Part shown: in pieces, positions 1-60,580 of the stretch | Layout: the number at the start of each line of letters is the position of its first letter | How positions within the stretch are numbered: position 1 is the stretch's first letter | From: Caldisericum sp. | GTDB lineage: Bacteria > Caldisericota > Caldisericia > Caldisericales > Caldisericaceae | DNA length: 64,000 nucleotides | Assembly: GCA_020692945.1 (NCBI GenBank) | Contig: JAIMJY010000001.1 | Span: 1-64,000, forward strand | Reading direction: 5' to 3' | Program-made: the position numbers and the translations under genes | Notes under the pieces: generated by a model | Database searches by the model: none | Seen by the model: only the letters and a program-made list of their open reading frames with translations | Told to the model about the DNA's origin: nothing

Positions 1-242
1 CATTCATATTGTTATTATATTATTATATACAATTTTTCAGAAATTCACATGAATTGCCTCACATAAAAACTATCCCTTCAGAAGTGGAAAAATAGAAAAA
101 AAGCATACTCAAAAAAATTGCAAGTTTTCAAATTGCCTCACCAAGAAAAGAGCAAGAAATTTACGTAAGGCAACACGTATTACGAGTCAACGCTGCTTTC
201 ATATTACAAAAATATTCAAATCTGTTATAATATACAAAAAAT

Positions 243-390
243 AACCTGCTGAAAAAGAGTACAGGTTACAAAGGAGTAAACCTGCTGAAAAGAAGCGCAG
301 TTTTAATCTTTTCTAATCCACGATCATTATCAATGGATTCCAGAGGAATAAATCTGCTAAAAAAGAGTGCAGATTACAAAGGATTAAAGG
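243..390 (+). repeat. Cluster of 3-4 units of the dispersed hairpin repeat. Units: AACCTGC-TGAAAAAGAGTA-CAGGTT-ACAAAGGAGTAAA; a degenerate unit at 281-308; a palindromic variant at 316-340; AATCTGC-TAAAAAAGAGT-GCAGATT-ACAAAGGATTAAAGG. The last unit supplies the AAGGAG Shine-Dalgarno for proS.
   Basis: Read directly in the sequence: inverted-repeat stems with complementary variation, conserved loop and linker, same family as the other listed loci. Confidence 0.8.
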
Positions 391-2180: not shown

Positions 2181-2222
2181 TTAATCCTTTGTAATCCGTA
2201 CTCTTTTTCAGCGGATTGATTA
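2181..2222 (-). repeat. Single unit of the dispersed hairpin repeat, minus orientation, between convergent proS and fabF
   Basis: Reverse complement reads AATCCGC-TGAAAAAGAGTA-CGGATT-ACAAAGGATTAA. Confidence 0.8.
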
Positions 2223-11837: not shown

Positions 11838-12625
11838 GCTTCACTAATTATTTTATCAATTAAAGATAAATTTACAAGCTCGCCATTTTTTTTAATTCGG
11901 AAAAAGAACTCTATATTTCCTTTCCTTCCCTTGATGGGAGAGTAAGTTGCGTCGACTACAGAGAAACCTAATTTGGGAATAATTTCAATGAGTGAATTCA
12001 GAATAATTTTATGAAAATTCTTATCTTTTATTATGCCTTTCCTGTTGAATTTTCTTTCTCCCTCGAACTGAGGTTTGACAAGTGAAATAATCTCACCGTC
12101 ATCTCTAAGCAAATCACGCAAAGACGGGAGAATTTTTGTTATAGAGATGAACGAAACATCCATTACTATAAGATCGATCTTTTCTGGAATTAAATCTTGA
12201 GAAAGATATCTTGCATTTACTTTTTCTAAAATAACTACCCTTGGATTGGTCCTCAGGGTGTAATCAAGCTGTCCGTACCCAACATCCAAAGCATATACTT
12301 TCGTCGCATTCCTTTTTAATAGGCAATCCGTGAAGCCTCCCGTAGATGCACCAACATCTAAAGCAACTGAGCCACTTGCATCAAATTTAAAATAATCAAG
12401 TGCAAAACTAAGTTTTACTCCGCCACGGCTAACGAACGCCTTTGGTCCAATTATTTCAATCGAGTCAGTGTCCTTAACGAGAGTGCTTGCGCGAGAAACA
12501 GTCTCCTTATTCAAAAGTACTTTCCCTTCAATGATAAATTTTTTTGCCAATGTTCTGCTTTCAAGCAAACTTCGCTCGACAATAGCTTCGTCAATCCTTT
12601 TTTCCACGTATAAAACTCTCACCAA
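11819..12625 (-). CDS. tlyA: TlyA-family rRNA 2'-O-methyltransferase (hemolysin A-like)
   Basis: 268 aa with N-terminal S4 domain and FtsJ-like SAM-binding motif (LDVGASTGGFTD). Confidence 0.85.
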   Translation of the reverse strand: MVRVLYVEKRIDEAIVERSLLESRTLAKKFIIEGKVLLNKETVSRASTLVKDTDSIEIIGPKAFVSRGGVKLSFALDYFKFDASGSVALDVGASTGGFTDCLLKRNATKVYALDVGYGQLDYTLRTNPRVVILEKVNARYLSQDLIPEKIDLIVMDVSFISITKILPSLRDLLRDDGEIISLVKPQFEGERKFNRKGIIKDKNFHKIILNSLIEIIPKLGFSVVDATYSPIKGRKGNIEFFFRIKKNGELVNLSLIDKIISEAWELSK

Positions 12626-14429
12626 TGGTTACAATATTTTCTATACTAAGACCATATTTATCAAGGAGAAAATTCCTTTTACCCTGTTCGGGGTAAAAGT
12701 CCCCTATTCCTAAGTTAATTACATTAATATTTTTTTTATAGAGAGCATAGGCAATCTCTCTGCCGAAGCTTCCTTTCACAATATTATCTTCGATTGTGAT
12801 GACTTTCTTGGAAGTTTGAGCGGCACTTAGAATTAGTTCCATATCGATTGGCTTGATGAAACGTGCATTTATAAGTCCGACTGAAAACCCCCTGCTTTCG
12901 ATTATTTCTTTTGCCTTAAGTGTTCTTTCGAACATTGCCCCAACTGAAACAAGCAGCAAATCATTTCCATGAGACCAAAGTTCCCCTTTGCCAACCTCAT
13001 ATTGTGAACGAGAATCAAAAGAAGGTTCAGCGCTTGCTTTTGGGTATCTAATAATAAAAGGATGATTTGTTTGGAGTGCCAGATGGAGAAGGCGTTTAAG
13101 TTCCTCCCCATCCTTTGGTGCTGAAACAACGAAAGAAGGAATAATTTGAGTAAACGAGGTATCGAATATACCCTGGTGAGTAGGGCCATCATCTGAAACA
13201 ACTCCACTCCTATCAAGAGCAAAAACAACTGGAAGATTAAGGATACCGACATCATGAATCAATTGATCATACGCTCTTTGAAGAAACGTAGAGTAAATAG
13301 CAACAACAGGTTTAAAGCCGTTCTGTGCTAAGGCAGCTGCGGTTGAAACAGCACACTGTTCGGCTATTCCGACGTCAATGAAGCGTTCAGGAAAAGCTTT
13401 TTTGAATAGATCTGTTCGAGTTCCATCAGGCATAGCCGCCGTGATAGTTACAACCTTCGGGTCTTGTGTCCCTTCTTCGACAAGTGCTTCGCCAAAGTAA
13501 TCAGAGAAACTCTTTGCTCCTTTTTTACCGTTAAATATACCTGTTTCAACGTCAAAAGGGGATGAGCTGTGAAACTTTGTAGGGTTGTCCTCTGAGCTTT
13601 GGTAACCTTTGCCTTTTTTTGTAACAACATGAACTACCGTTGGTTGATAAATATTCTTTGTTCTTTCAAATGTATCAATGAGTTCTTTGATGTTGTGTCC
13701 ATCAATAGGGCCAATATACGTGAAGCCAAACTCTTCAAAGAGGACATTCTGCAGAAATAAATCTTTGATTGCAAGTTTTATTCTTCGGCCTATTTTTGTT
13801 CCTGGTGTTTTCCTTCTAAGGTTTTGATAAAACCTGGAAGAGCGAATACGAGAAAGATAACGAGAGATAGCACCAACATTATGTGCTATTGACATTTCAT
13901 TATCATTCAAGATAATTAGAACCTTCTTGCCAAAAGCGCCAAGATTGTTGAGTCCCTCGTAAGCCTCGCCACCTGTTAGAGCTCCATCGCCTATTACTGC
14001 GACTACCTCATAATTTTCTTTTTTAAGTTCTTTCGCTTTAATGAAGCCAAAAGCAATAGGGAGAGCCGTTGAAGCATGCCCTGCAATAAAACTATCGTAA
14101 GGGCTCTCATTTGGATCAGTGTATCCGCTTATTCCACCATACTGCCTTAATGAGTAAAAAGAATCCTTTCTTCCAGTGATTATCTTATGCGTGTATGCCT
14201 GGTGGCCAACATCAAAAATCAGCTTATCCTTCCTGAAATCAAATACGCTGTGAAGGGCAAGAGTAAGTTCAACAGTTCCAAGGTTAGAGGCAAGATGCCC
14301 CCCGTTCATTGAAACAGTTTCAATAATTAAATCCCTTATTTCCCCTGAAAGTACATTGAGTTCTTCAATCGAAAGCAACCTAAGATCACCTGGACTGTTT
14401 ATCCTATCTAAAAATTTTGGTTTTACCAT
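12591..14429 (-). CDS. dxs: 1-deoxy-D-xylulose-5-phosphate synthase. The ORF call extends to 14555, but the extra 42 codons are encoded by a copy of the dispersed repeat; the likely start is Met43 at 14429, preceded by AAAGGA.
   Basis: TPP-dependent transketolase-like protein. The canonical Dxs N-terminus (LDRINSPGDL) begins right after the internal Met. The upstream extension translates a repeat unit (LLRGIADYKRLKK). Confidence 0.88.
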   Translation of the reverse strand: MVKPKFLDRINSPGDLRLLSIEELNVLSGEIRDLIIETVSMNGGHLASNLGTVELTLALHSVFDFRKDKLIFDVGHQAYTHKIITGRKDSFYSLRQYGGISGYTDPNESPYDSFIAGHASTALPIAFGFIKAKELKKENYEVVAVIGDGALTGGEAYEGLNNLGAFGKKVLIILNDNEMSIAHNVGAISRYLSRIRSSRFYQNLRRKTPGTKIGRRIKLAIKDLFLQNVLFEEFGFTYIGPIDGHNIKELIDTFERTKNIYQPTVVHVVTKKGKGYQSSEDNPTKFHSSSPFDVETGIFNGKKGAKSFSDYFGEALVEEGTQDPKVVTITAAMPDGTRTDLFKKAFPERFIDVGIAEQCAVSTAAALAQNGFKPVVAIYSTFLQRAYDQLIHDVGILNLPVVFALDRSGVVSDDGPTHQGIFDTSFTQIIPSFVVSAPKDGEELKRLLHLALQTNHPFIIRYPKASAEPSFDSRSQYEVGKGELWSHGNDLLLVSVGAMFERTLKAKEIIESRGFSVGLINARFIKPIDMELILSAAQTSKKVITIEDNIVKGSFGREIAYALYKKNINVINLGIGDFYPEQGKRNFLLDKYGLSIENIVTIGESFIRGKKD

Positions 14430-14460
14430 TTTTTCCTTTAATTTTCTCAGTTTTTTTAAT

Positions 14461-14552
14461 CTCTTGTAATCTGCGATCCCTCTCAGCAGATTCCTTTTTT
14501 GTAATTTTAACTCTCTAAAGTTTATTTTTTTTTGCAATCGTGCCTTTGTAGT
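14461..14552 (-). repeat. Dispersed hairpin repeat (one full unit AATCTGC-TGAGAGGGATC-GCAGATT-ACAAGAG plus partial units) between ispA and dxs
   Basis: Stem, loop and linker architecture read directly; it explains the spurious N-terminal extension of the dxs ORF. Confidence 0.7.
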
Positions 14553-15442
14553 CACTTCATCCTGCCAAGCGTGAATTCTGCAAGCTCAATTATCGTTGTA
14601 TATTTGTTATTATAAGGTTTCAAAAAATCAACAGCTTTTAAGATGAGTTCTTGCGCAATATTTTTAGACTTCTCCACTCCGAAAAGGGCTACAAAAGTTG
14701 CCTTTTTGTTCTTCTTATCCTGTTGTGTTTCTTTCCCAAGGATTTCTGGAGAAGACGTCTCGTCGAGGACATCGTCAATAATCTGATAGCTTATACCGAG
14801 ATTTTCCCCGAACCTTGAGAGAGCAAGTTTCTCACTTTCGTTAACTCCTGCGAGTATTCCCCCTGTCCTGATTGCAAGAGAAATAAGGGAAGCAGTTTTC
14901 AGTCGGTCGATATAAGTGATAGTTTCTTCGTTGATTTCTTCATCGACACTGGAAATCATGTCCATTACCTGACCTCCCACGAGTCCCTTAACTCCGGAGG
15001 ACAAAGCAAAATTATTTACTACTTCAAGCAATAATTTTTCATCAAACAAATTTCTGTGAATTGGGTTTGACGCCATCTCGAAAGAATAAGAAAGCAAGGC
15101 ATCCCCTGCAAGGAGAGCCATATCGCTTCCATAAACCTTATGGCAACTTGATTTGCCTCTTCTCTCATCACTGTTATCCATTATTGGTAGATCATCATGT
15201 ATCAAGGAGTAAGTATGTATCATCTCAATCGCACAGGCAAAAGGAAGTATGTCTGCTTCGTTCTTACCGCTTGCAGAATATGTAGTAATTGCAAGAATAG
15301 GCCTAATTCTTTTGCCTCCTAAAAGCAAACTGTAAGCCATAGCTGCATAGAGAATTGAGTGCTCTTTTAAAGGAATGAGCGAAGACTCAAGCGCAGAATC
15401 AATAACTTTCTTCTTCTCCTCAAGATATTTAGTTATATCCAT
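14552..15442 (-). CDS. ispA: Polyprenyl diphosphate synthase (farnesyl/geranylgeranyl diphosphate synthase)
   Basis: 296 aa with first and second aspartate-rich motifs (LIHDDLPIMDNSDERRG; IIDDVLD). Confidence 0.85.
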   Translation of the reverse strand: MDITKYLEEKKKVIDSALESSLIPLKEHSILYAAMAYSLLLGGKRIRPILAITTYSASGKNEADILPFACAIEMIHTYSLIHDDLPIMDNSDERRGKSSCHKVYGSDMALLAGDALLSYSFEMASNPIHRNLFDEKLLLEVVNNFALSSGVKGLVGGQVMDMISSVDEEINEETITYIDRLKTASLISLAIRTGGILAGVNESEKLALSRFGENLGISYQIIDDVLDETSSPEILGKETQQDKKNKKATFVALFGVEKSKNIAQELILKAVDFLKPYNNKYTTIIELAEFTLGRMK

Positions 15443-17153: not shown

Positions 17154-17924
17154 GTGGATATGATGTCATTAGTATATTTAATACCCATAAGTTTAATTTT
17201 AATCATTATCTTTGCGCTGAGTATCAGAATCGTGCAGCAGTGGCAAAGAGGTGTTGTCTTTTTCCTTGGAAGGTACAAGAGGGAACTTAAGCCCGGGTTC
17301 AACTTAATAATACCTATTTTTGAATATGTTCGGTATGTAGATGTGCGTACTCGCACAATGGATGTTACCCCACAAGAAGTTATGACCAAAGATTCTGTTC
17401 CAGTTAAAATTGATGCGGTGGTTTACTACAGGGTGTTTGACGCGATGAAATCGATTATAGCCGTTGAGAATTTTGCTTCAGCATCTACCCTTATGGCACA
17501 GTCTAAGTTAAGAGATGTCGTGGGGAAATACGACCTTGACACTCTTCTTGCAAGTAAGGATAAAATAGGAAAAGAAATCCTTGAAGCCTTGCAGGGGCCA
17601 ACAGATAATTGGGGAATAACCATTGTAAGTGTTGAGATTAAGAATATTGAGCTGCCTGATAATATGAAGCGTGCAATGGCAAAAGAAGCTGAAGCAACAA
17701 GGGAGAAGAGGGCTCGTCAAATCAAAGCATCTGCAGAAGAAGATGCGAGTTTAGCTTTTCTAAAAGCGGCCAAAAATATGTCAGAAGCACCTGGAGCAAT
17801 TCTTTTAAGGCAACTTCAAACATGGCAGGAGATTGGTGCAGAACAAAACAGCCTGATTATCCTTGTCCCAACTGAATTTGCAAACGCAATCGGGAGACTT
17901 CAGTCTAAAAAAGAAGAAAAATAA
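17154..17924 (+). CDS. SPFH/band-7 (stomatin/prohibitin-like) membrane protein
   Basis: 256 aa, N-terminal transmembrane helix then SPFH domain and coiled-coil (EAEATREKRA...). Confidence 0.8.
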   Translation: MDMMSLVYLIPISLILIIIFALSIRIVQQWQRGVVFFLGRYKRELKPGFNLIIPIFEYVRYVDVRTRTMDVTPQEVMTKDSVPVKIDAVVYYRVFDAMKSIIAVENFASASTLMAQSKLRDVVGKYDLDTLLASKDKIGKEILEALQGPTDNWGITIVSVEIKNIELPDNMKRAMAKEAEATREKRARQIKASAEEDASLAFLKAAKNMSEAPGAILLRQLQTWQEIGAEQNSLIILVPTEFANAIGRLQSKKEEK

Positions 17925-18052
17925 TCTACTGAGAAAGAGTATAGATTACAGAAGATTAAATTCACACACTTTTCCAGTGGATTTATTTGCACTCTTTTCG
18001 GCAAATGTGCCTGCATTCTTTCTCAGCGGGTTACAAAGGATTAAAGGAGTAT
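17923..18052 (+). repeat. Cluster of about 3 units of the dispersed hairpin repeat in mixed orientation, downstream of the SPFH gene
   Basis: AATCTA-CTGAGAAAGAGTA-TAGATT-ACAGAAGATTAAA; reverse unit ATTTGC-CGAAAAGAGT-GCAAAT; third unit ending in ACAAAGGATTAAAGGAG. Confidence 0.8.
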
Positions 18053-20350: not shown

Positions 20351-21500
20351 TCAAACAAAGAGTATAAGTATGGATGCAATTACCGCAAGTATTCCACCGA
20401 AGTAGAAAGGAGTTTTAGGTGCAATATATTGATACAAGATTCCTGCAATAAATGATGCAGGGAAAGCCGTAATACTAACACCAAAGTTATAAATTCCGTA
20501 TGCAGTTCCTCTTGAATCATCGTCTTCAACAAGATCAGCGACAAAAGCTTTTTGTGCCCCTTCAGTAAACGCATAATAAATCGCGTATATTATAAAGAAA
20601 ATCCAAAGAAATGAGGAAATTTTTGTCAGAGCAAAACCAAGATATGAAAGTCCATACACTGTATAGCCAATGATAATTGTCTTCTTCCTTCCGATCTTAT
20701 CAGAAAGTGCCCCAAGTGGTGCAGAAAGAAGTCCATAAATAGTGGAGTGAAGAGCCCATAGAGCAAGGATAGTCGTGGCCAAAAGCCCTAGATTTTCTGC
20801 ATACATTGTTATAAAAGCATCGGAACTATTACCAAGCGTAAAAATAGTAACAACGGCAATAAAAAAATAGAAACGTTTGCCAAGGTCGAATTTAGATGAA
20901 CTTTTAGCCTTCTTTATTGTTTCTTTAAATTCATGCTCACGAACAAAAAGCATCAAAATTAGTGCAATAAAAGCAGGTATCAAGGCATATTTAAAAACTG
21001 CCTGGTAATTTGTCTTGCCAAGTTTATTAAGCACCCATATACCAAGCAGAGGGCCAACTGCAGCACCAAAGAGTATCAAGTGCTCTATGAAAACCAAAAT
21101 ACAGCCCTCTATTCGTTTCGTTTGTATAAGATGAAATCAGTGCATCTCTTGGTGCAGTCCTTATTCCCTTGCCTATTCTTTCAGTTACCCGGATAATTAG
21201 GATACCAAAAGGTGTTACCGTAAAAGGCAAAAAGATTTTTGTAAACGTTGACTCTGCGTATCCAAAGAAAGCAAGCCATTTTCTGTTTTTAAATTTATCT
21301 GAAAAATATCCAGAAACAATCTTTAAAGTCGAAGATGTTGTTTCTGCAAGCCCTTCAATAACTCCGATAAATGCTCCACCAGCCCCAATTGACTCAAGGA
21401 AATGCGGCAAAACCTTCGTTATCATTTCAGATGAAACATCTGTGAAGAAACTTACCAATCCGAGCAAAACGACATTTAGATTAATTTTTCTTTTCGTCAA
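20351..21500 (-). pseudogene. MFS transporter split by a single-base frameshift into an N-terminal ORF (21027-21500) and a C-terminal ORF (20351-21097)
   Basis: The two overlapping ORFs together give a roughly 400 aa, 12-TM MFS protein. The frames switch inside the sequence GATACTCTTTGGTGCTGCAGTTGG (plus strand about 21068-21078; the G/A run is given on the minus-strand coding sequence, so the plus-strand run is an A run). A one-base indel in that short homopolymer would restore ...ALDTL(x)GAAVGPLLG. Confidence 0.6.
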
Positions 21501-23430
21501 AGCCTCCTATATACTTATACCCTTTAAAGGCTTTTGCAAATTCTCTGAATTCAGGTGAAGCAAGTGTATCGATGAACAAACGCACACTTTTCTTTTGCAG
21601 CTCGCTTTTTAAAATCAACAAATCGTACTCTTCGTCTTTAACGCTCACGAAGTCCAAATCAAACATATCTGCAACATATCTTATACCCATGCCACAATCA
21701 GCACCCCCAAACTTAACTGCGTTGGCAATTCCAAGATGGGTATACTCTTCATACTCATACCCTGCAATATCCGATGCAGGTATTTTATTGCGTTTAAGTA
21801 AATAGTCAAACAATACTCTTGTACCAGACCCCTGTTGTCTGTTAACAAATTTAATTCCATTTCGTATAAGATCAGAAATGGACAAGATGTTTTTAGGATT
21901 ACCTCTCTTTAAAATCAAACCCTGGTCTCTTAGACTAAATTTAACAACAATAATATCTTTCGAAACGTACTTTTCTAAAAAAGGCTTATTGTAAGTGCCT
22001 GTCATGTCATCAAAGAGGTGCACAGATGAAATAGAGCACTCCCCTCTTTCTAAGGCAAGAAGCCCTCCAAAACTTCCAGTATTGATAACTCCAATCCTAA
22101 AATTAGTATTCCTTTTCGCAATGTAATCGACAAGCGCATCAAGCAGCGGGTCATTACTTCCGATAAAGAGCAGTTGGTTTTCAATATTTTGTTTGGACTC
22201 CAATAAATTTACTTTCACTTTAGACCCACTTTCGATACCTTCAACATGATTAGGAATAACAAAAATACCATCGGCATTGGTTACGCTTGTTAGTACTCCT
22301 GCGCCCTTCTTAAGTGGCACTGCAACTAATTTGCCACCGACATCGCCCAATCTCACCCTTATGTATTCCTCAACTCCAATCGAAGATGGAATAGGACGAA
22401 GAACAAAAGCCTCAACTTCCTCATTTGACCCTTTATCGTCAGTTAAGGTTCTAATTGCTTCCTCTAAAAATATTCTGGTATCCAGGTAGCAGGATACTGG
22501 AAATCCAGGCATTCCAATGAGAGGCTTATTATGAGAAACAGCGAGAACAAATGGCTTGCCTGGTTGAATAGAAAGTCCATGTATTAAAACTTCACCGACT
22601 ATTGCAAAAATTTTTGAAACAAGGTCTTTATTTCCCTTAGCCGAGCCTCCAACAACAACAATAAAATCGGCATTACTTACATTTGATAAAATAGCTTTTG
22701 AAATTAACTCTTCATTATTAGGAAGAATTTCCGTAATGTAAGCCGCTCCTCCTGCCCCCTCTACAATATTTTTAATCATATAGGAGTTGGTATCAACGAT
22801 ATCGGGAACTGCAAGCTTCTCAAAGGGGGCTTTTATTTCCTCTCCCGTGGGAATAATACAAACTACTGGCCTTCGTTTTACAAAAACACTTTTAACTCCA
22901 CTTGCTATCATTACGGCTATATGCTCTGCCCGAATCTTTTGGTTTGGATGAATTAAAATATCGCCAACCGAAAAATCGTCACCTATCATTCGTACATTCT
23001 TGTATGCTGAAACTGGAAATGGTACTTTTATTCCTTTGTAATCCGCGCTCTTCTTCAGCGGATTTATTGACTTCATTGATAACTCTACATCCTCTATCAT
23101 GACAACGCCGTCAAAACCTTTAGGAATTGGGTCTCCTGTATTAACGGGAATAGCATCATTTGACAAAAATAATTCCTTAGGGTTTTTGATGTTCGCATCG
23201 GCTGTTTTGGAAGAGTGAATTGCAAATCCATCAACCGCAGAGGCATTGTAAGCTGGGGAACAAAGTTTTGCAACAACAGGGTCAGCAACAACTCTCCCAA
23301 GAGATTCAAAGGTTGAAACTTCTTCGTTGCTCAGAGGATACGCTTTTACTGCTTCTTTAACAACTTTATTCCAAATTTCGAGAGCTTCGTCTAAAGTACG
23401 TTTTTTGAGGAAAATTTCTCTTTCTACCAT
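21481..23430 (-). CDS. moeA: MoeA-like molybdopterin molybdenum/tungsten transferase fused to a C-terminal periplasmic-binding-protein-like (molybdate/tungstate-binding-like) domain
   Basis: 649 aa. N-terminal MoeA domains (MoCF biosynthesis GSAKG-like block, VVVGG) and a PBP-like roughly 230 aa C-terminus. Contains an in-frame repeat-derived insert SINPLKKSADYKGIK. Confidence 0.8.
   Translation of the reverse strand: MVEREIFLKKRTLDEALEIWNKVVKEAVKAYPLSNEEVSTFESLGRVVADPVVAKLCSPAYNASAVDGFAIHSSKTADANIKNPKELFLSNDAIPVNTGDPIPKGFDGVVMIEDVELSMKSINPLKKSADYKGIKVPFPVSAYKNVRMIGDDFSVGDILIHPNQKIRAEHIAVMIASGVKSVFVKRRPVVCIIPTGEEIKAPFEKLAVPDIVDTNSYMIKNIVEGAGGAAYITEILPNNEELISKAILSNVSNADFIVVVGGSAKGNKDLVSKIFAIVGEVLIHGLSIQPGKPFVLAVSHNKPLIGMPGFPVSCYLDTRIFLEEAIRTLTDDKGSNEEVEAFVLRPIPSSIGVEEYIRVRLGDVGGKLVAVPLKKGAGVLTSVTNADGIFVIPNHVEGIESGSKVKVNLLESKQNIENQLLFIGSNDPLLDALVDYIAKRNTNFRIGVINTGSFGGLLALERGECSISSVHLFDDMTGTYNKPFLEKYVSKDIIVVKFSLRDQGLILKRGNPKNILSISDLIRNGIKFVNRQQGSGTRVLFDYLLKRNKIPASDIAGYEYEEYTHLGIANAVKFGGADCGMGIRYVADMFDLDFVSVKDEEYDLLILKSELQKKSVRLFIDTLASPEFREFAKAFKGYKYIGGFDEKKN
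23031..23068 (-). repeat. Dispersed hairpin repeat unit inserted in frame inside the moeA-PBP CDS
   Basis: Reverse complement reads AATCCGC-TGAAGAAGAGC-GCGGATT-ACAAAGGAA and is translated as INPLKKSADYKG inside a loop of the MoeA N-terminal domain. Confidence 0.8.
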
Positions 23431-24647: not shown

Positions 24648-25558
24648 GATAATAAATCCTCAATTACGTTTTCAATTTTTTGGTTAATTGAAAGGTCTGC
24701 CTTTGAAAAAATTGGAGCGTTTGGATCTGCATTAAAAGCAATTATATGCTTTGCATGAACTGCATCAATGTGCTGGATAGCACCAGAGATTCCAAAAGCA
24801 ATGTACAGTTCTGGATTAATAGATAGCCCGGTGTCACCCACTATCCGATTAGCATCGATCAGTCCTCTATCGCCAACAGGCCGTGTGCAGCAAATTTCAG
24901 CACCAATAGATGATGCAAATTCTTTTATCTTGGGGATCAACGATTCTTTGACTCCCCTTCCAACACCCACAACAACTTTAGATTCAATAAGTGGATTATT
25001 TTCCAGGCATTCGCTTGAAATACAATCGAGTGAATGAGTTTTAGTCACCTGAATGACTTCGCAAATTCCTTTGGAATCCGCACTCTTTTTCAGCGGACTT
25101 ATTTTTGATTTTGTTTCTTTGTAATTGTTGCCCTTTTTCAAACGATTATAAGGAAAGCATTTCTTGTCGTCCTTTAAAATTAGAAGCGCTGGCTTTTTTT
25201 GAGAGAAAACTTCTGCAACAAAATTTTCCCAGCCGTAAACAAGTCCAATAATTTTACCATCCTCAAACTTGATTTCTTTGCTGTGAGCAATAAGCCCGAG
25301 AGCATTCTTACCTGCAAAATAGGATGCAGTTTCTTTTACAACTGTTTCATCTGAAAAGATTATCGCGTCAAAATCCATAATCCCTGGTATATTCGAGATG
25401 AAATCTGTTCCAATGAGAGGGTCGTTTATAGCCAGGGAAGGAATAAAATCTGCACTACCTTCTTCACTTGAAAAGCTTGCAGAAAACACTTCGGGGAACA
25501 TTCCACGAAGCTTGGAAATGATACCGTTATCTTCTTTAAAAATTCCCAATATCTTCAT
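24623..25558 (-). CDS. etfA: Electron transfer flavoprotein alpha subunit (FixB-like)
   Basis: 311 aa with C-terminal FAD-binding domain motifs (YIAFGISGAIQHIDAVHAKHIIAFN). The interdomain linker carries two in-frame repeat units. Confidence 0.85.
   Translation of the reverse strand: MKILGIFKEDNGIISKLRGMFPEVFSASFSSEEGSADFIPSLAINDPLIGTDFISNIPGIMDFDAIIFSDETVVKETASYFAGKNALGLIAHSKEIKFEDGKIIGLVYGWENFVAEVFSQKKPALLILKDDKKCFPYNRLKKGNNYKETKSKISPLKKSADSKGICEVIQVTKTHSLDCISSECLENNPLIESKVVVGVGRGVKESLIPKIKEFASSIGAEICCTRPVGDRGLIDANRIVGDTGLSINPELYIAFGISGAIQHIDAVHAKHIIAFNADPNAPIFSKADLSINQKIENVIEDLLSWAKNSSR
25066..25150 (-). repeat. Two tandem dispersed-repeat units in frame within etfA
   Basis: Units AAGTCCGC-TGAAAAAGAGT-GCGGATT-CCAAAGGAA and AATCGTT-TGAAAAAGGGC-AACAATT-ACAAAGAAA, translated as NRLKKGNNYKETKSK-ISPLKKSADSKGI. 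Confidence 0.8.
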
Positions 25559-27759: not shown

Positions 27760-28398
27760 TTACTCCTTAGTGACCTTTATTTCTCTTAATGGATTTACGC
27801 TCCCTTCTCTTAGAAGTTTTGGTTTGCTTCCAGTACAATCAACTACCGTTGAGGACAAGCCGCTCATTTGTATATTATAATCGCAAAGACGGCGATTGCA
27901 AAGGAGTAAATCAAAATCTACGAAAAAGACTTTATCTCCAAAAAATCTATTAACTTCTTCCTTTGTAAGCATTGGCTGCTCGCCCGAAATGTTTGCGCTT
28001 GTATTCAAAAGAGGAATACCAATGTAGGCAAGGAATTCATTGAGCGGCCTTGAATTGGCAATTCGTACTCCGATGGTATCACCAATGGTGTTGGGGGAGG
28101 TAAATAATTTGTGGCTTGAGTAAAAAATAAGAGTCAATCCGCCCGGAAAATGTTTTTTCATAAGGTCATAAGCGTAATAAGGGATAGCACGTGCGTACTC
28201 AAATATTTGTGCTATTGAGTAGGCAAGCATGTATAATGGCTTATCAAACGATCTCTTTTTCAATTTAAAAAGATTGCTAACAGCAATGCTATCTCTTCCG
28301 TCAACCCCAATTCCCATTACCGTGTCAGTCTTAAAAGCAATTATGCCATGCAAATCAAGGTTTTTTTTTGCTTCTTTGAAAAAATCTATTTTTTCCAT
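27760..28398 (-). CDS. tsaC: L-threonylcarbamoyladenylate synthase (YrdC/Sua5 family)
   Basis: 212 aa YrdC-domain protein. The C-terminus may carry a degenerate in-frame repeat copy. Confidence 0.8.
   Translation of the reverse strand: MEKIDFFKEAKKNLDLHGIIAFKTDTVMGIGVDGRDSIAVSNLFKLKKRSFDKPLYMLAYSIAQIFEYARAIPYYAYDLMKKHFPGGLTLIFYSSHKLFTSPNTIGDTIGVRIANSRPLNEFLAYIGIPLLNTSANISGEQPMLTKEEVNRFFGDKVFFVDFDLLLCNRRLCDYNIQMSGLSSTVVDCTGSKPKLLREGSVNPLREIKVTKE
27879..27912 (-). repeat. Possible degenerate copy of the dispersed repeat (short loop) inside tsaC
   Basis: AATCGC-AAAGACG-GCGATT-GCAAAGGAGTAAATC; translated LLLCNRRLCDYN between the conserved DGG and STVVD blocks of YrdC. Confidence 0.35.
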
Positions 28399-32953: not shown

Positions 32954-32987
32954 TAAATCACCTCTCTAAAAATAAAGTATTCTTTAT

Positions 32988-33177
32988 TCCTTTGTAATCC
33001 ATACTCTTTCTCAGTGGATTTACTCCTAGGGTATATAATATTGTATAAGATTTTCAATATATTTCAAGTGGCTTATTTTTGTAGATGACCTTTGCTTTTT
33101 CACTTTTTTTAACTCTTCTGTAACCTGCGATCTTTCTCAGCAGATTTATTTCCACCTTTTCAGCAGATTTCTAAAGC
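32988..33177 (-). repeat. Three dispersed-repeat units (32988-33030 and 33115-33177) in the upstream region of the rho operon, forming the left border of the accessory island
   Basis: Reverse complement reads AATCCAC-TGAGAAAGAGTA-TGGATT-ACAAAGG, then AATCTGC-TGAGAAAGATC-GCAGGTT-ACAGAA and a partial unit. Confidence 0.8.
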
Positions 33178-33201
33178 AAAATCTCTCCTACCGCAAGATA
33201 G

Positions 33202-33744
33202 GAGAGAGTAATTATTCAAGATGCGTTAGATTTATTAAAACAAGCTGCCCTAAATGCAGGAAATGAAATAAACAAAACTGGAATCTTAAGACAAAGACCA
33301 AATGAAGTTGGAAATGATATAGAAACGTACGTTAAGGATGCTTTAAATTCGTTAGGTTTAAAAGCAGATATTCCAGTAGGACCAAGTGGAAATAAAAAGG
33401 CTATGGGCTATCCTGATGTGCTGTTCTGGTTTAGTGATACACCCTATTATTTAGAATGTAAAACTTACAACATTGAAAATATAGAGACAACACAAAGAAG
33501 CTTTTATTTTTCGCCCTCTGATGAATTTAAAGTGACCTATGATGCGCCTCATTTTATTTTGTCTTTTGAAATTTATGTTTCTGGAGAGCAAGGAGACAAA
33601 CATATCTACAAATGCAAACATTACAAGATTTTGTCCGTAGAATCATTGTCATTGGATGTAAAGTATGAATTTAACTCTGATAATAAGAGAATGTATTCAG
33701 GTAAAGATGGAACAATTATTCTTGCAGAGTACGATATCTCTTAG
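33202..33744 (+). CDS. PD-(D/E)XK superfamily nuclease (restriction-endonuclease-like). The reading frame is open from 33202, but the first canonical start is ATG 33403; the start is uncertain (non-ATG or damaged).
   Basis: Motif GYPD-x14-ECK matches the PD-(D/E)XK active site. The upstream in-frame 67 codons (DALDLLKQAALNAG...IETYVKDAL) look like the helix that normally precedes the catalytic strands, so the protein probably starts before Met 33403. Confidence 0.5.
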   Translation, partial: ERVIIQDALDLLKQAALNAGNEINKTGILRQRPNEVGNDIETYVKDALNSLGLKADIPVGPSGNKKAMGYPDVLFWFSDTPYYLECKTYNIENIETTQRSFYFSPSDEFKVTYDAPHFILSFEIYVSGEQGDKHIYKCKHYKILSVESLSLDVKYEFNSDNKRMYSGKDGTIILAEYDIS

Positions 33745-34057
33745 CATTTGCACTCCTTCTTGCCTTATCATGATTAGATAAAGATTTCTTATTCAGTATT
33801 GCCTCCCTCTCTTTCGACAGCCTTCGTATATTAATTGGTAGGAGGCGAACAAAAATGAGAAAAACAAAAAAGTTATTGGAATAATAAAGAGTATGTTTGA
33901 GTAGAAAAATAAAAAAAGTATAATAAATAGTGGCTAAATAGATGGGAATATGGAGAAAATTAAAATGAATCTATTTGAAGATAAATAGATGTTAGTAATT
34001 TGTTTTAGGCATATAAGATTTGAGGGTTGTCTTTTTATTATTTAGGGAAAAGGAGGC

Positions 34058-34702
34058 TTGTCCATGAAAATCTTTCAAACTGAAGATGAATTAAAAGATC
34101 AGCTAAAAGATCAGATTGACTTTTTGATAAAATCTTCAAAAGCTTACGATGAAGGATTCACAAGTGAGGCAAAAAGACTAGCTACGGGGATTAGAGTATT
34201 GCTCCATGATACTCAAAATTTAACTTCTTTATTAACACTTTTGAAAAAAAATGATATTTTATTTTATGATACTTCATTAGATTATAATCAGAATAGTCTA
34301 CTTCTTACGCCTGGGCTCATTATGCTGAAAATGGGACCTAATGGCGGGGAGTATGTTCCACCGTTAGGTAATGGTCCTCCGACAAGGTATCAGAAGGGAA
34401 AAATTCCATTTACACAATGGTGGAATAAAATTGTGCTCGTAGATGACAAAGGCAATAAACTAACAAGAAAAGACTTAGTTCTCACAGTTTGCGACAAGGA
34501 TGGAGGAGCACATGTTGATCCGAAATTAGATGAAGCTTATTTTGCACTTTCACGATTTAATTCTTTGGGGTGGAAATACATAAAAAATGACGTTGAAAAA
34601 GATTTTGTTACCAGACCAGAATTAGCAAGTATACGGCAAATTAGTTACGAGGTACTAAAATCTCTTAAAGATGAATTTCCAGAATATTTTAAAACAGTAT
34701 AA
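34058..34702 (+). CDS. Hypothetical protein (214 aa), first gene of a three-gene cassette
   Basis: ORF with good RBS context (AAAGGAGG). No family recognised from sequence. Alpha-helical acidic N-terminus, Gly/Pro-rich centre. Confidence 0.5.
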   Translation: MSMKIFQTEDELKDQLKDQIDFLIKSSKAYDEGFTSEAKRLATGIRVLLHDTQNLTSLLTLLKKNDILFYDTSLDYNQNSLLLTPGLIMLKMGPNGGEYVPPLGNGPPTRYQKGKIPFTQWWNKIVLVDDKGNKLTRKDLVLTVCDKDGGAHVDPKLDEAYFALSRFNSLGWKYIKNDVEKDFVTRPELASIRQISYEVLKSLKDEFPEYFKTV

Positions 34703-34714
34703 GCCATCAATAAT

Positions 34715-35338: not shown

Positions 35339-35401
35339 CTTAAACCATAAAACTATTATGCACATGCAAAGAAATTTCATACCAAGTAAAAGGATTGAAA
35401 T

Positions 35402-35908: not shown

Positions 35909-36033
35909 TTGCTATTATAAAATGAAATTGATCGACTTTCCAATTATAATTTAAGAAAATATTGTGTTTTTATCTGAATATAGTTAAAATAAGATATCTG
36001 TTAAAATAAATGCATTAAGGGGTCCATAACAAA

Positions 36034-39826: not shown

Positions 39827-39875
39827 TATTTTGAATATGAATGTTACTTAATTGTTTTGAAATGAATTTTGCTAT

Positions 39876-39903
39876 TTGATGTTTTCCTGCAATCTGTTAT
39901 AAT
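39876..39903 (+). promoter_or_regulatory. Sigma70-like promoter with extended -10 (TTGATG -35, 16 nt spacer, TGTTATAAT) upstream of the toxin-antitoxin operon
   Basis: Hexamers read directly. RBS AGGGAGG follows. The same TCTGTTATAAT box recurs at 219-232 and about 62388. Confidence 0.45.
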
Positions 39904-41069: not shown

Positions 41070-41172
41070 AACCTGCTGAGAATGATCGTGGGTTCCAAAG
41101 GATTAAATCCACTGAAAAGGATCGTGGATGAATCCGATGAAAATGAGCTCGGATTTCAAAGGAGTGACAAAA
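41070..41172 (+). repeat. Three dispersed-repeat units forming the right border of the accessory island, upstream of tilS
   Basis: AACCTGC-TGAGAATGATC-GTGGGTT-CCAAAGGATTAA; ATCCAC-TGAAAAGGATC-GTGGAT; AATCCGA-TGAAAATGAGCT-CGGATTT-CAAAGGAGT. Confidence 0.8.
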
Positions 41173-52167: not shown

Positions 52168-54045
52168 TCATTTTCCTTGCCCAGAGAAAATACTTCTATT
52201 TATTGCAGTAAACCCGGAAGAGGCAACCTCAGCAATTTTATCGCCTTCATTTAAACCTGAAACAATTTCAACAAATTCGTCTGATGAAACTCCTGTGACA
52301 ACTTCAACTCTTTCAAAAATCTTTTCATCAAGCGTTAAATAGACAAACTTTTTTCCATTTTCTTCGAGGATAGCGTCAATGGGTATGCCTATTGCGTTAT
52401 CCTTCTCTTGGACGGTAATGTCAATGTTGACACTCAAACCACTTTTTAGGGAAATATTCGATGAATTTATAGCAGTCTGCACTTTATATGCTTGAACTCC
52501 TTGATTTGTAACCGTAGAAACGAAAGAAATGGATTTAACGCTTCCATTGATACTCTGCTCTGGTAAGGCATCAAAAGAGTACTGAACAGATTGCCCTGGT
52601 TTTATCTTCACTGTGTCAATCTCGTCAGAATAGGCCTCTGCAAAAAAATGCATTGTATTACCAATTATACAGATCACCGCGCCAGGAGAAACAATATCCC
52701 CCTCGCTCGGTTTGACCATAAGAACCGTACCATCAAACGGAGCTTTTATCGTGAATTTACTAAGAGTGTCATTTGCAACTTGAAGGTTTGCTTTTGACTG
52801 CTCTACTTGAAGTTCAGCTTGTATAACCTTATCGTCTCCAATGTCAAACTGCAATTTTGCGTTTGAAAGTGTTGCCTCAGCCTGAGAAACGCTATCTGAG
52901 GCCTGTTCAACCTGCAAATGCCTAATTTCTATCGTATCATTGCTTGTAGAAGCATTCTTATTCACCATATCAAGATTAGCCTTTGCAACCTCAAGTTGCG
53001 ATTCTGCTAAGTGTACCTGGTTCTCGAGTTGAATCTTCTGGACTGACTTAGTATTTTGAGCTTTAACTGCCTGGTTGTAGTTTTCCTGGGCAATTTGAAG
53101 TGAATTTTTGGCTTGTTCTACCTGGTTTTCGGCAGTATTTATTTGGTCGTCAGACGCAGGACCATTGATTATTTTCATCTTTTCCAAACTATTCGTTGCT
53201 ATCGTAACATTACTTTTAGCGATTTCCACCTGAGATTCGTAGATCGTTATTTCTTCCTCTGGTGTTTTTGGGTTGTTGGCAGCTTCGTTTAGCTTTTCCT
53301 CAGCAATTTTTTCGTTCTCTTTTGCCTGGTTGAGTTGCTCATTTGCAGTGCTTATATCCTGAGCGGTTGTTAGAGATTCCTTCATTCTTTTTAGGCTGAG
53401 CTGAGCAATTGCAAGAGAAAGTTCAGCATTTTTTTCCTGAAGTTCTGCAATCTTAACAGATTCGGGAGACGTATCGGTTTGATCAAAGGACTCGTAGTTG
53501 AGCCTGGCATTTGAGAGATTTATTTCGGCTTGTTTTACAGATTCTTCTGCTTGAGTTAACTGGCTGGAATGATTATCCGTTTTCTGAGTAATTTCCAAAT
53601 TTTTCCGTGCAATGGCTAACGACTCATTTGCATTTTTTAGTCCAGCTTCTGCCTGCAAAACCGCTGCGTTAGTATTGGACTTTTTTGTTATGTTTAAACT
53701 CTCTAAAGCAAGATTGTAGTTAATCTGCGCAATTTGATAATTGGAAGATGCCTGCGTAGAATCAATATAAAGTATAACATCGCCTTTTTTTACAGAAGTT
53801 CCATCCTTTTTATATATCTTTGAAACCTTTCCCTGCACTTCCGAGTAAACAGTAATCTCAGGATCAGTTTTTAATGTCCCTGTCAAGCTCACAACGTTTT
53901 GTATGTCCATCCTACCTACAGTATAAATTCCAGTTTGTTGAGAAGATGAAGAACTGTTGCATCCATAAAAAACTACAGTGCCAACAATCAAAATGGCTAA
54001 CAACAGCAATGTTTTTACTCTTCTGGAATCTGCAATCTTTTTCAT
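52168..54045 (-). CDS. Periplasmic adaptor (HlyD/MacA-type membrane fusion protein) with an unusually long coiled-coil
   Basis: 625 aa with N-terminal TM or lipobox region, roughly 350 aa of heptad-rich Q/A/E/N sequence and C-terminal beta-barrel/MPD domains. Confidence 0.75.
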   Translation of the reverse strand: MKKIADSRRVKTLLLLAILIVGTVVFYGCNSSSSSQQTGIYTVGRMDIQNVVSLTGTLKTDPEITVYSEVQGKVSKIYKKDGTSVKKGDVILYIDSTQASSNYQIAQINYNLALESLNITKKSNTNAAVLQAEAGLKNANESLAIARKNLEITQKTDNHSSQLTQAEESVKQAEINLSNARLNYESFDQTDTSPESVKIAELQEKNAELSLAIAQLSLKRMKESLTTAQDISTANEQLNQAKENEKIAEEKLNEAANNPKTPEEEITIYESQVEIAKSNVTIATNSLEKMKIINGPASDDQINTAENQVEQAKNSLQIAQENYNQAVKAQNTKSVQKIQLENQVHLAESQLEVAKANLDMVNKNASTSNDTIEIRHLQVEQASDSVSQAEATLSNAKLQFDIGDDKVIQAELQVEQSKANLQVANDTLSKFTIKAPFDGTVLMVKPSEGDIVSPGAVICIIGNTMHFFAEAYSDEIDTVKIKPGQSVQYSFDALPEQSINGSVKSISFVSTVTNQGVQAYKVQTAINSSNISLKSGLSVNIDITVQEKDNAIGIPIDAILEENGKKFVYLTLDEKIFERVEVVTGVSSDEFVEIVSGLNEGDKIAEVASSGFTAINRSIFSGQGK

Positions 54046-54135
54046 TTGCTCTTTACCTCCCTGTTATAATTAAAATCAGTTCTTTTAATCCCCTGGAATC
54101 CACTGATAAGGATCGTGGCTTTACTCTCTTCTTAC

Positions 54136-54236
54136 TTCTTTGTAATTGCTGCCTTTGCAATTTATCGCATTTCTTTTCAGCGATTCCAAAAGAATAAATC
54201 TGTTGAAAAAGAGTGCAGATTATAAAAGAATAAAGA
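54136..54236. repeat. Two or three dispersed-repeat units in mixed orientation between the efflux operon and the NHL-protein gene
   Basis: AATTGC-AAAGGCA-GCAATT-ACAAAGAAG (minus strand); ATCGC-ATTTCTTTTCA-GCGAT; AATCTGT-TGAAAAAGAGT-GCAGATT-ATAAAAGAATAAAG. Confidence 0.7.
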
Positions 54237-57435: not shown

Positions 57436-60400
57436 TCACGGGTATTTCTCGCCGTAATGCTTTGCAAGCATGAAAAAATCGATGCTGCTTATAATGCCGT
57501 CAAAATTAAGGTCACAGGAGGCGTTGTATCCTGTATCACCCTTTTTTTTCAAGAAGCTTGCTTTGAGAATGTTCAAGTCAAGATTATTGATTGCGTTATC
57601 ATTGTTCAAATCAAAGAAATGTGAATAATCAGAAATATTATAATACAGTTGTGGAAGGACAAAACCTAAAAGCTGAGAACTCTGAACAGAAGAAACGCCA
57701 ACAAAACCAGACCCATTGTCCAACGCTTTCAGTTTTAATGAAGCTATCACGCTCTTGTTTGTGAATGAGCTAGTTTCGGATGTCAAAGAAATTTTAACTA
57801 CCCCGTTCTGGATATCGGAGGTAAAATTTATGTCATCTGCCAGGCTTTTCCCTTTCTGACATTCGCTGACCGCAAAGTGGTACGGGTCGAAATTGAAGTT
57901 AAAGTTAAGGCTCCCCGCCAGTTTTAAAGAATCAACGTATACGTCAAGCCAAAATTCATTTCCGTTCTTCAATAAAAGCGTAAAATTGTTTTGAGGAACA
58001 ATGTATATGGTGTTGGAAGGAGACTGTGATACAGTAAATGTACCACTTGAGGAAGAAGTAACTTCTGTTGGCAAGACAATCTTTGCACCTTCGTTAACGG
58101 TTGCTTCTATGTACTCTACTTTATAGTAATAGGTACCGTTGTCGTACTTGAAATCTTGCGATAAATCCATTAGAGAGAGGTTTGCGGAATAATCGCCAAC
58201 GTAAATAGGGGCTTGGTCAAATATTGTATCAATCAACTTGCCCGAAAAATCATAAACATCAACCTTTACCTCCTCAGCAACGTTTCCGTTAAAAGTGGAA
58301 TTGTCATCAGACATGCTTTGTCCTATGCCAACCGTAAACTGTACTACGAGGTTGTTTTGAGGAGTCAAACCGGTGCCTGATATCTTAACGTTGTTTAGTA
58401 CAGGCTGGATTGAGGCATTGGCAATGTAGACAAAAGGAATGTGTAAATTTATTGAGCTTGAGTCTTTGAGGTAAATATATCCGTAGGCCTCCGACGACTC
58501 TTTCAAAGCAGAAAAATTAGCAGTGAAAGTAGCAGTGCCGTTTACTGGCACACTAACAATAAAAGGCAGAGTAATTGAAATTTTGTCATTTGAAACCATT
58601 TGATAAGAAGTAAAGAAAGTTTTTGCATTGCTTGATAAGTTAGTCACAGTAAACGTTACTGACTTAGTTAAATCACCGTTACCAAAAATCACTGAGGATG
58701 GTTTAATGAAATAATTTGAATTGATAGCATTTAATGCATTTATTCTGCCCGCTCCTTGCATTAATGGAGAAAAAGGAAGCCCGGAGTACGGGTTGATGAG
58801 TACGTCAGAGGAATTCATCAATAAAGCCTTTGCATCATCAGGGCTGATGTTCGGCCTCCACTGCTTTAGCAAGGCAGAAACGCCTGCAACTACTGGAGAA
58901 GCCATTGAAGTGCCACTCATTACGCCAACTTTATCTGCCGGAAGCGTTGAACTAACATTCACTCCAGGAGCTACCAAATCAGGTTTGAAAAACAAATCTG
59001 AAGTTGGTCCGTCAGAGGAGAAATCAGCGATCCGTCCGAGGCCATATTTATTCTGAATGTATATACCTAAAGATAGATTCTCCTTTAGTGTTTGCCCGTC
59101 AGTGAAAGAAACAAATAGAAACGGTATGAACCCAGTTGCTTGAGGGTTACTTTCAGAAGATAGTTGTATACTGGGGATACCACTAACATTGTTATATACT
59201 ATTACTCCGATTGCTCCTGCGCTCTTAGCGTTGAGATCTTTATCACCAAAATATATCTTACCTCGTTCAATGAAGGCAATTTTACCTTTAACGTCTTTCC
59301 CTTGAAAGTCACTTGGCTCTCCAAGACCGCAGTAGACCATATCATAATTTCCATCATTAAAAAATGGAGATTCTGGAGGGTAATTAGCAAGAATTTGCTT
59401 ATTACCAGAGGTTATAACTCCTGTGATGCTATCATCGGTTGCCCCGACTCCGATAGCTTTGTCCACAGAAGCAGGGGAGGAGAGCGGAAATTCCACTGAA
59501 TCAGAGCGCGAGCCCTTATTCCCTGCAGCAGCCACAACAACTACCCCGCTGCCAACCGCATTTCTTACGGCTAAAGACTGAGGGTCGTCTCCAAAAGCCT
59601 GCCCTCCAACCGTACCAATAGATATGTTAATGATGTTACATTTATCCTTAACTGCTTGTTCGATGCCTTGAATTATTGTCGAAGTAGAGGTAGAATTATC
59701 GTTACCCGAAAATACCTTATAAGCTCTTATTTTTGCATCAGGAGCAATGCCATCGACAGAACCTGCTATTATGCCAGCCACATGTGTACCATGGCCGTCG
59801 GAATCTTTTGGATCAGCATCGTCATCTGCAAAATCATAACCTCCGATCACTTTAGAGTTTGGAAAATTGCCTCCTCCAAGCTCTTTGTCAGTGTAATCCA
59901 CACCGGTGTCGACAATACCAACTACAATGCCTTTTCCTGTGATATAGTTATTGGAAGAATCTTTCTTTTTGTTCACGACATCTGATTGTATAACTTTTGT
60001 GAGAGTAGTCCTCTCAAGATAAACTGGATTATCTTCAAAGATACCGCTAACATCTTTAAAATTGGCAATGCCTTTGATATCAGTGCCTTTGACCTTGCAA
60101 GCAACAGCATTTACGGTGTAGGAAAATGAAAATCTTGTTTCCCCACCAAGTGAAGAAACTAAATCTGAAAACTTTTCGTGGAAACTTTGGATTTGTGCTT
60201 CATAGGAGTCCGCTTCATTCCTGTTTACAAATGACAGCAGCTTATAAGCAAAGCTTTTTCTGTACTCTAAAACTGGTGGTTTGTTGAACACTACAATAAC
60301 TTGTTTAAATTCATTTGAATAAAAGTCAAATTTTCCGAAAAATTTTGCACTTATTCTTTCATAATCCACGATCTCTATCAGTGGATTTACTCTCCCGTAC

Positions 60401-60465: not shown

Positions 60466-60484
60466 TGCGTCCTCCTAACTTTTA

Positions 60485-60580
60485 TTCTTCTGTAACCCGA
60501 GATCATTTTCATCGGATTTATCTATGCACTTCTTTCCAGCGGATTTACTCCTCTGTATCCGCACTTCTTACCAGAGGATA
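60485..60580 (-). repeat. Two degenerate dispersed-repeat units in the divergent promoter region between the S8 protease and the HAD hydrolase genes
   Basis: Reverse complement AATCCGA-TGAAAATGATC-TCGGGTT-ACAGAAGAA and a second partial unit with the CTCCTCTGTA linker. Confidence 0.6.

Follow-up and report, generated by a model that had tools for sequence, protein, structure and literature searches.

RPEs are palindromic repeats that lie between genes and also, in frame, within unrelated housekeeping genes, where their translation gives a conserved peptide in loops (PMC2229807; PMC10969869). REPs are extragenic, and their mobile unit is an inverted doublet of ~100 nt, the REPIN, with single REPs being decaying remnants (PMC3337134). 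MITEs such as Correia/NEMIS, ERIC and RUP span ~100–200 bp, carry terminal inverted repeats and usually leave a TA duplication (PMC2229807). How REP- and RPE-like repeats move, and why they are tolerated within genes, is largely unresolved, and clean insertions are rare in model organisms. A family of small palindromic repeats, MJRE, was reportedly described by Suyama et al. in 2005 from Methanocaldococcus jannaschii; most of its copies are said to be extragenic, and a few are said to sit inside coding genes with the reading frame kept. We know of no report of exact unit-length presence/absence data or of a frame preference for MJRE.

The repeats considered here come from a 64-kb stretch of Caldisericum DNA, which as a whole we call the window, and are 36 nt long. 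As with RPEs, copies are found both between genes and in frame in conserved protein genes, where they would encode a conserved peptide. They are set apart from RPEs by description: RPEs are 105–146 bp long and Rickettsia-specific, whereas this unit is about a quarter of that length and its hosts are Caldisericum-like, with a single short hairpin (7-bp stem), an asymmetric tail and head-to-tail arrays, and with many filled/empty polymorphisms among close relatives. The family shares with REPs a short imperfect palindrome present in many copies, a lineage-specific sequence, a hairpin kept by compensatory change, and a presumed mobility in trans that leaves no target duplication (PMC3337134). Unlike REPs and REPINs, however, it has copies inside genes, is gained and lost as a single 36-nt unit, and forms arrays that are mostly head to tail. 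REPs and REPINs go with a RAYT gene; searches with approximate query sequences, covering the window and ~1 Mb of fetched loci, found none for the 36-nt family. The likeness to MITEs lies in small, non-autonomous repeats with folded transcripts that are sometimes fused in frame to genes (PMC2229807); the differences are a length of 36 nt, an inverted repeat that is internal, a one-sided tail and no consistent duplication. IS200/IS605 elements have a hairpin end, leave no duplication and insert 3′ of a short specific motif; the 36-nt units have a hairpin and lack a duplication, with a left flank that carries only ~0.5 bit per position. The orientation of IS200/IS605 elements is tied to the direction of replication, but that of the 36-nt units follows the gene strand. 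The sequence is unrelated to that of MJRE, and the host is a bacterium rather than an archaeon.

Results

A 36-nt unit with a covarying hairpin

Each unit consists of a 25-nt hairpin, made of a 7-bp stem (AATCYRC/GYRGATT) and an 11-nt loop (TGARAAAGAGY), followed on one side only by an asymmetric, purine-rich 11-nt tail (ACARAGGAWTA) whose last bases are TA. Units are either solitary or arranged in head-to-tail arrays with a 36-nt period and no spacers. The stems are AT-rich and the hairpins are weak, with predicted energies of −5 to −9 kcal/mol at 37 °C, and either strand folds equally well. In the sense orientation, the tract 3′ of the hairpin is A-rich, not U-rich. The unit corresponds to 12 codons and is open in two sense frames, while the third sense frame contains stops.

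The loop motif occurs 18 times in the 64-kb window, compared with 7.7 expected, and the linker motif 25 times, compared with 8.8 expected; none of 100 shuffles reached 18 or 25, respectively. A repeat finder independently recovered the same loci and the 36-nt array spacing. Thirteen window copies were aligned over 46 columns with a mean column identity of 78%, and this alignment served as the seed for a covariance model. The model gave 19 matches in the window at E ≤ 0.018, distributed over 11 loci, and six of the 19 were not in the seed. When the degenerate copies at 27760–27908 are included, the window contains 12 loci, fewer than the 15 or more that had been counted in an earlier sequence-only reading of this DNA.

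Across the 13 window copies, 95.6% of the stem cells are paired and four of the seven pairs show changes on both sides; when the partner column is slid along the alignment, pairing falls to 15–47%. Among the matches listed, 64 distinct metagenomic copies gave 94.3% paired cells with double changes in six of the seven pairs, one of which is UA in 31 copies and CG in 30. The pattern with which these copies were fetched left the 5′ arm of the stem unconstrained.

At the Rfam gathering score, a tmRNA was the sole pass in the whole window and no unit was matched, and at E ≤ 10 the interval 200–420 returned nothing meaningful. Full-text literature searches did not find the 36-nt family described. 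The sequence-only reading had proposed a dispersed hairpin family of the REP/RPE/Correia type, and this holds given the covariation, the absence of an Rfam match, and the further copies that the covariance model detects in Caldisericum MAGs and in at least 67 metagenome contigs. Its more specific statements, that the stem is maintained by compensatory changes, that loop and linker are shared, and that the absence of spacers distinguishes the units from a CRISPR array, agree with the pairing, the motif counts and the abutting or solitary placement of the units given above. The 36-nt repeat family is real and, as far as our searches reach, previously undescribed. The coordinates of the copies are collected in Table 1.

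Table 1. Repeat units and associated features of the window, followed by filled/empty allele pairs from fetched contigs.
Feature	Coordinates or site	Strand	Remarks
Promoter-like −35/−10	203..231	+	ATTACA, 17 nt, TG-TATAAT; consensus match only, 10/12
proS unit 1	243..278	+	62.5 bits; AACCTG-CTGAAAAAGAGTA-CAGGTT-ACAAAGGAGTA
Degenerate hairpin-only unit	279..303	+	starts exactly 36 nt after unit 1; weak, E = 4
Inverted unit in proS leader array	304..339	-	38.2 bits; one of two antisense exceptions
Last, near-consensus unit ahead of proS	351..386	+	65.4 bits
Unit directly 3′ of fabF-like stop codon, convergent genes	2182..2217	-	covariance model
Unit between polyprenyl synthase gene and dxs	14457..14492	-	degenerate units continue to 14552
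Unit overlapping stop codon of SPFH-family gene	17923..17958	+	covariance model
Unit with inverted loop and sense tail, then AAGGAG	18008..18043	+	E = 0.018
In-frame unit in MoeA-PBP, residues ~121-133	23029..23064	-	SINPLKKSADYKG; gene 21481-23430, minus strand
In-frame unit in ETF-alpha	25064..25099	-	ISPLKKSADSKG; 12-residue insertion vs L045 orthologue
Weak second unit at ETF-alpha locus	25117..25147
Decayed sense unit, 3′ end of TsaC/Sua5-like gene	27760..27795	-	E = 1.3
Degenerate 30-nt unit, antisense within TsaC/Sua5-like gene	27879..27908	+	E = 1.1
Unit in leader of FTCD_C-family gene	32985..33020	-	covariance model
Second unit, same divergent intergenic region	33111..33146	-	covariance model
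Three head-to-tail units upstream of tilS	41070..41166	+	41070-41105; hairpin-only 41106-41130; 41131-41166
Truncated unit, loop gives ATG of HlyD-like gene	54016..54046	-	MKKIADSRRVK; E = 6.5e-5
Mixed-orientation cluster	54086..54232		54086-54121 (-); degenerate 54130-54178 (-); 54197-54232 (+)
In-frame unit after subtilase signal peptide	60352..60387	-	VNPLIEIVDYER; covariance model
Subtilase-upstream array, two to three units	60483..60580	-	60483-60518; 60546-60580; a degenerate one between
Filled L095 vs empty L085, L090	inside ORF		flanks 96-100% identical; AATCCACTGAAAAGGAGCGTAGATTACAGAGGAGTA between GATTAT and AAAGTT
Filled/empty pair L140 vs L065
Filled L137 vs empty L129	directly before intrinsic-terminator-like hairpin
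Filled L166 vs empty L088, L135, L058, L146
Filled/empty pair L051 vs L153
Filled L106 vs empty L128	after 4th codon		MRNI^NPMKKSSDYRGL^KYII
Further filled/empty pairs: L134 vs L121; L163 vs L153

Copies in leaders and spacers

The array ahead of proS (243–392) has a promoter-like site just 5′ of its first unit, so the proS leader would consist almost wholly of repeat units; the proS transcript would start just ahead of the first unit, from the promoter predicted at 203–231. An AAGGAG follows at 387–392, directly 3′ of the last unit, and the proS ATG is at position 400. The final unit had earlier been credited with supplying this ribosome-binding site, but the AAGGAG adjoins the 3′ end of the unit and lies outside it. 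Where inverted units stand next to sense units, here and at 54086–54232, the antisense and sense tails can pair over ~12 bp and enclose the hairpins. This tail–tail pairing corresponds to a REPIN-like composite fold with an energy of −31.6 kcal/mol (z = −2.1). The unit at 54197–54232 is the second antisense exception in the window.

The unit at 14457–14492 is in frame with a long dxs ORF, yet lies upstream of the likely dxs start. The longest dxs ORF (12591–14555, minus strand) begins at a GTG that overlaps the polyprenyl synthase stop and runs through the units in frame. Its DXP-synthase domain starts only at residue 49, and an internal ATG followed by the sequence MVKPKFLD is present at ~14429. 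From the position of the domain and of this ATG, the units can cause false N-terminal extensions in annotation. The divergent intergenic region that carries the two units at 32985–33146 measures 449 nt in the window versus 177 nt in L043.

Copies inside genes

At least five window genes have copies in their coding sequence, namely MoeA-PBP, ETF-alpha, the subtilase, the HlyD-like gene at its start and the TsaC-like gene at its end. A Pfam scan of 20 window ORFs showed that several copies fall within domains. The adjacent paralogue of MoeA-PBP and most of its orthologues, including that of C. exile, are 12–13 residues shorter at the position of the insert. An AlphaFold model places the insert in coil between two strands, with a pLDDT of ~52, which is low confidence. 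We considered MoeA-PBP as a clean empty site and rejected it, as the closest orthologues have unrelated-looking inserts of their own there: the two closest carry different inserts of ~25 residues in the same loop (L043:10331-10480, L045:10331-10480). The 3′ part of the L043 insert is faintly like the tail of the unit, and this insert may be an old decayed copy, or the loop may be one that accepts insertions. Since the loop holds other, longer inserts in the closest orthologues, the MoeA-PBP site cannot date the insertion.

Two copies lie in the TsaC/Sua5-like gene. The one at 27760–27795 encodes the final 11 residues of this gene and its TAA stop, and also provides def, whose ATG is at 27754, with its AAGGAG Shine-Dalgarno sequence. 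The antisense copy at 27879–27908 corresponds to a 10-residue insertion, DLLLCNRRLC, and two orthologues are without it.

Among the matches listed, copies internal to long ORFs are read in the frame that gives NPLKKSADYKG (frame b) in 14 of 16 cases, in the other open sense frame in two, and in the stop-containing frame in none. The binomial probability of this preference is p = 0.004, a statistic that treats orthologous copies as separate; as several of the 16 copies are orthologous, the number of independent cases is ~10. We infer that copies inside genes are translated, almost always as NPLKKSADYKG(I/V), and that the peptide lies in a surface loop.

Exact gain and loss of single units

Both flanks of every copy in the fetched contigs were searched against the other contigs. 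Among the matches listed, many contig pairs have the same flanks 36 nt closer together and without the unit. In six filled/empty comparisons (filled alleles L095, L140, L137, L166, L051 and L106), the difference is exactly 36 nt and the flanks are 87–100% identical. At the three best-resolved sites the junction can be shifted by only 1, 2 or 4 nt and no common motif is duplicated. With a junction ambiguity of only 1–4 nt, there is no consistent target-site duplication.

For 130 unique copies among the matches listed, the left flank is informative only at −3 to −1, where W, T and A are preferred and C is almost absent, and the two bases 3′ of the unit are usually AA. The left flank ends in TA or GA, like the end of the unit itself, with only ~0.5 bit per position.

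One set of orthologous genes includes eight filled and six empty alleles, which are interspersed in a weakly resolved neighbour-joining tree. The flanks of the empty allele L057 are nearly identical to those of the filled alleles L108 and L114. The clean filled/empty pairs, together with the interspersed alleles, indicate that gain and loss have been recent and repeated. The filled members of the set (L106, L113, L054, L108, L114, L116, L078 and L151) encode proteins that start MRNI/MRTI...KYI(I/V)LHHSAT, with the unit after codon 4.

Distribution

The ProS protein of the window is identical to that of MAG GCA_017973915.1, which MoeA-PBP matches as well, and the closest named relatives of MoeA-PBP are those of Caldisericaceae and Caldisericum exile, at 46–63% identity. 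When one genome per species was scanned with the pattern, 38 stretches came up, of which three contain true members of the family, all from Caldisericum MAGs, while the others are single chance matches. A scan of metagenome contigs gave at least 120 stretches, and the model confirmed members in at least 67 of the contigs, with at least 129 matches at E < 0.001, or at least 135 when the three MAG loci are added. The syntenic DNA of three relatives (C. exile L047 besides L043 and L045), 66 kb in all, contained no match better than E = 1.2. Between 12.5 and 33 kb, the window has ~8 copies, whereas the syntenic regions of L043 and L045, the closest available, and of L047 have none. Hence the family is lineage-specific, with a patchy distribution across the phylum.

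Orientation with respect to transcription

Seventeen of the 19 window copies are oriented with the host transcript, whether they lie in its leader, a spacer, its end or the coding sequence, and the unambiguous window loci are in sense orientation in nine of nine cases. Units had earlier been described as occurring in either orientation; both do occur, but with a strong bias to the sense strand. Metagenome contigs, with genes called by a simple ORF heuristic, gave 38 sense versus 9 antisense copies among the matches listed, divided into 19 versus 4 between co-directional genes and 19 versus 5 at contig edges. Within the 64 kb, copy orientation tracks the gene strand across eight strand switches, so the bias is tied to transcription and not to replication. 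Replication-linked orientation was accordingly rejected, as the gene strand dictates orientation, and the skew profile of the window merely mirrors the gene strand.

The sense bias probably reflects selection on transcripts. Possible causes are the hydrophobic, cysteine-containing peptides that antisense frames would encode, the anti-Shine-Dalgarno-like CCUUU in antisense tails, the avoidance of sense/antisense duplexes between different mRNAs, and a mechanism that uses the non-template strand. Terminators formed by antisense copies were also considered and are a weak candidate, as the T-rich tract precedes the hairpin in a solitary antisense copy.

Conservation of orthologous copies

Across the eight filled alleles of the orthologous gene set, identity at third codon positions is 96% in the unit versus 58% elsewhere in the gene. 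This difference is partly ascertainment, since fetching of the contigs relied on an exact 24-nt pattern that fixed 21 of the 36 unit positions. Of 216 segments of 12 codons in this gene set, the unit ranks first in conservation, and the unit positions that the fetching pattern left unconstrained are also nearly invariant. In three pairs fetched for other reasons, the unit is 97–100% identical versus 76–93% for the flanks. A simple decaying selfish insertion does not predict conserved orthologous copies. Their high identity could reflect selection, gene conversion, or the spread of a filled allele by recombination, and it also points to recurrent insertion as a possible source.

Among the matches listed, the mismatched stem cells of the 64 metagenomic copies comprise 6 G:U and 7 A:C, without strand asymmetry. 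An RNA-strand signature, suggested by an excess of G:U in the 13 window copies, was therefore rejected, the excess being gone in the 64. The hairpin structure is under selection, and RNA and DNA are both compatible with these data.

Discussion

In all likelihood, the 36-nt units are a family of very small mobile palindromic elements specific to the Caldisericum-like lineage, similar in kind to REPs and RPEs but unusually small. Whole units are gained or lost at W-T-A^A sites without target-site duplication, and are tolerated in leaders, in spacers within operons, at 3′ ends and, in frame, within coding genes. Some decayed copies now serve the host as a start or stop codon or as a Shine-Dalgarno sequence.

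The conserved hairpin, loop and tail would form the recognition signal for a trans-acting enzyme. The best candidate for such an enzyme would be a hairpin-recognising single-strand transposase (HUH/Y1, IS200/IS605- or RAYT-like), which would cut 3′ of '...TA' in two places, the left flank and the end of the element itself. Insertion beside the end of an existing unit would then generate the 36-nt arrays. Cutting of the HUH/Y1 type would explain why no duplication is left, why the unit has an exact length and why arrays run head to tail. Recognition of the folded single strand by a trans-acting enzyme of this type, with cutting 3′ of '...TA', is a tentative proposal. Pfam detected no transposase in 20 window ORFs, and phmmer none in 3,381 ORFs from the window and ~1 Mb of fetched loci, using approximate IS608 TnpA and E. 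coli RAYT queries. Exact 36-nt loss could be enzymatic or could arise by slippage between the ATAAA direct repeats that bracket the hairpin. With slippage possible, an enzyme is not needed for every polymorphism.

A bolder version of the mobile-element reading, which we regard as speculative, is that no smaller self-contained transposable unit may be known. It would be one hairpin with its tail, precisely excised and inserted, polarised by transcription and not by replication, and exactly 12 harmless codons long, which would let it live within genes; orthologous copies would be actively maintained at the nucleotide level, as in the 96% versus 58% identity at third codon positions. If this were true, a host-level function in RNA or DNA, or continual gene conversion, would be implied, and the mobilising enzyme might belong to a type that has so far had no connection with repeats like these.

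The strongest alternative is that the units are host-functional RNA hairpins, acting in protein binding, mRNA stability, processing or translation, that are kept by selection and are not mobile parasites. The strong sense-strand bias would fit such a role, as would the many copies in leaders near start codons, the covarying stem, a tail that resembles a Shine-Dalgarno or GGA-type binding motif, and orthologous copies that are more conserved than flanks and synonymous sites. This last comparison, however, is inflated by exact-pattern fetching and has only three unbiased pairs. Against it, copies vary widely in where they stand with respect to genes (in leaders, at 3′ ends or in coding sequence, 13 to 190 nt from starts), presence or absence differs between near-identical strains, and the close syntenic relatives L043 and L045 have no copies at the same genes. 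The hairpins are weak, and the balance of G:U and A:C mismatches bears no RNA-strand signature. On this evidence we think a purely host-functional RNA element unlikely, but function and mobility are compatible and both could be true.

Known classes of repeat of other kinds are highly improbable. The hairpin arms can be read as the inverted repeats of a MITE moved by a DDE transposase, but there is no consistent target duplication and the 11-nt tail lies outside the inverted repeat. A degenerate CRISPR array would have repeats of about this length, but the units abut with a 36-nt period and lack spacers, and no cas domains were found among the ORFs scanned with Pfam. Some copies lie at 3′ ends of genes, as intrinsic terminators would, but the stems are GC-poor and the tract after the sense hairpin is A-rich; a terminator scan of positions 1–2400 called no unit. 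The least probable reading, and one that is largely refuted, is that NPLKKSADYKG is a peptide module spread by duplication of coding sequence, with the non-coding copies as dead remnants: one frame dominates in genes and 36 is a multiple of three, but 121 of 137 unique copies among the matches listed lie outside coding sequence, some, such as those at proS, do not share the frame of the gene downstream, it is the nucleotide sequence that is conserved, third codon positions included, the paired stem positions covary, and the host proteins are unrelated.

As a family of very small, probably mobile elements, the 36-nt repeats offer dozens of natural filled/empty alleles with identical flanks, in a unit that is short enough to synthesise and has a clear strand and frame polarity. 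In-frame copies occur in well-understood enzymes (MoeA, ETF-alpha and a TsaC-like protein). The mechanism, with its enzyme, strand and target, is thus directly testable, and so is what a gene loses or gains when 12 residues are inserted into a loop. Annotators of Caldisericota genomes should note that the units give rise to false N-terminal extensions and to spurious small ORFs, but that some start codons, stop codons and ribosome-binding sites within them are real. A new principle would emerge only if the maintenance of copies or the enzyme proves to be new.

Other features of the window

Several observations concern the surroundings of the repeats. The SPFH/Band-7 gene (17154–17924, plus strand) sits between efp and a response-regulator gene, a place where L043, L045 and C. 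exile do not have it; the gene ends with a stop codon in the flank of a repeat unit, and further units follow downstream. From ~33400 to 40900, the GC content is only 0.33–0.35 and there are small ORFs without Pfam matches, along with an Eco57I/MmeI-type restriction-modification fusion (36350–39826) and a MazF-like toxin. This region looks like a defence island that adjoins the repeat-rich divergent region at 32954–33402. A perfect 16-nt tandem repeat, TCAGAAGATTAATAGT, is present in 2.4 copies at 40875–40912, where it overlaps the end of the MazF/PemK-like toxin gene (40506–40886) and lies just upstream of the tilS array.

Two very large secreted proteins are encoded in tandem at 54240–60465 on the minus strand, with repeat clusters at both ends. 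The larger, of 1061 residues, combines NHL/beta-propeller repeats with a copper amine oxidase N-terminal-like domain; its neighbour, a subtilase of 1009 residues, contains PA and dockerin domains. The tmRNA gene (61784–62132, minus strand; RF00023, 174.9 bits) is full-length and has no repeat unit inserted, in contrast to the RPE-bearing tmRNA of Rickettsia. An MFS transporter gene (20351–21500, minus strand) is split into overlapping ORFs at 21027–21500 and 20351–21097, owing to a frameshift or a sequencing error, or because it is a pseudogene; in L043, L045 and L047 the orthologue is one undivided gene of 381–389 residues.
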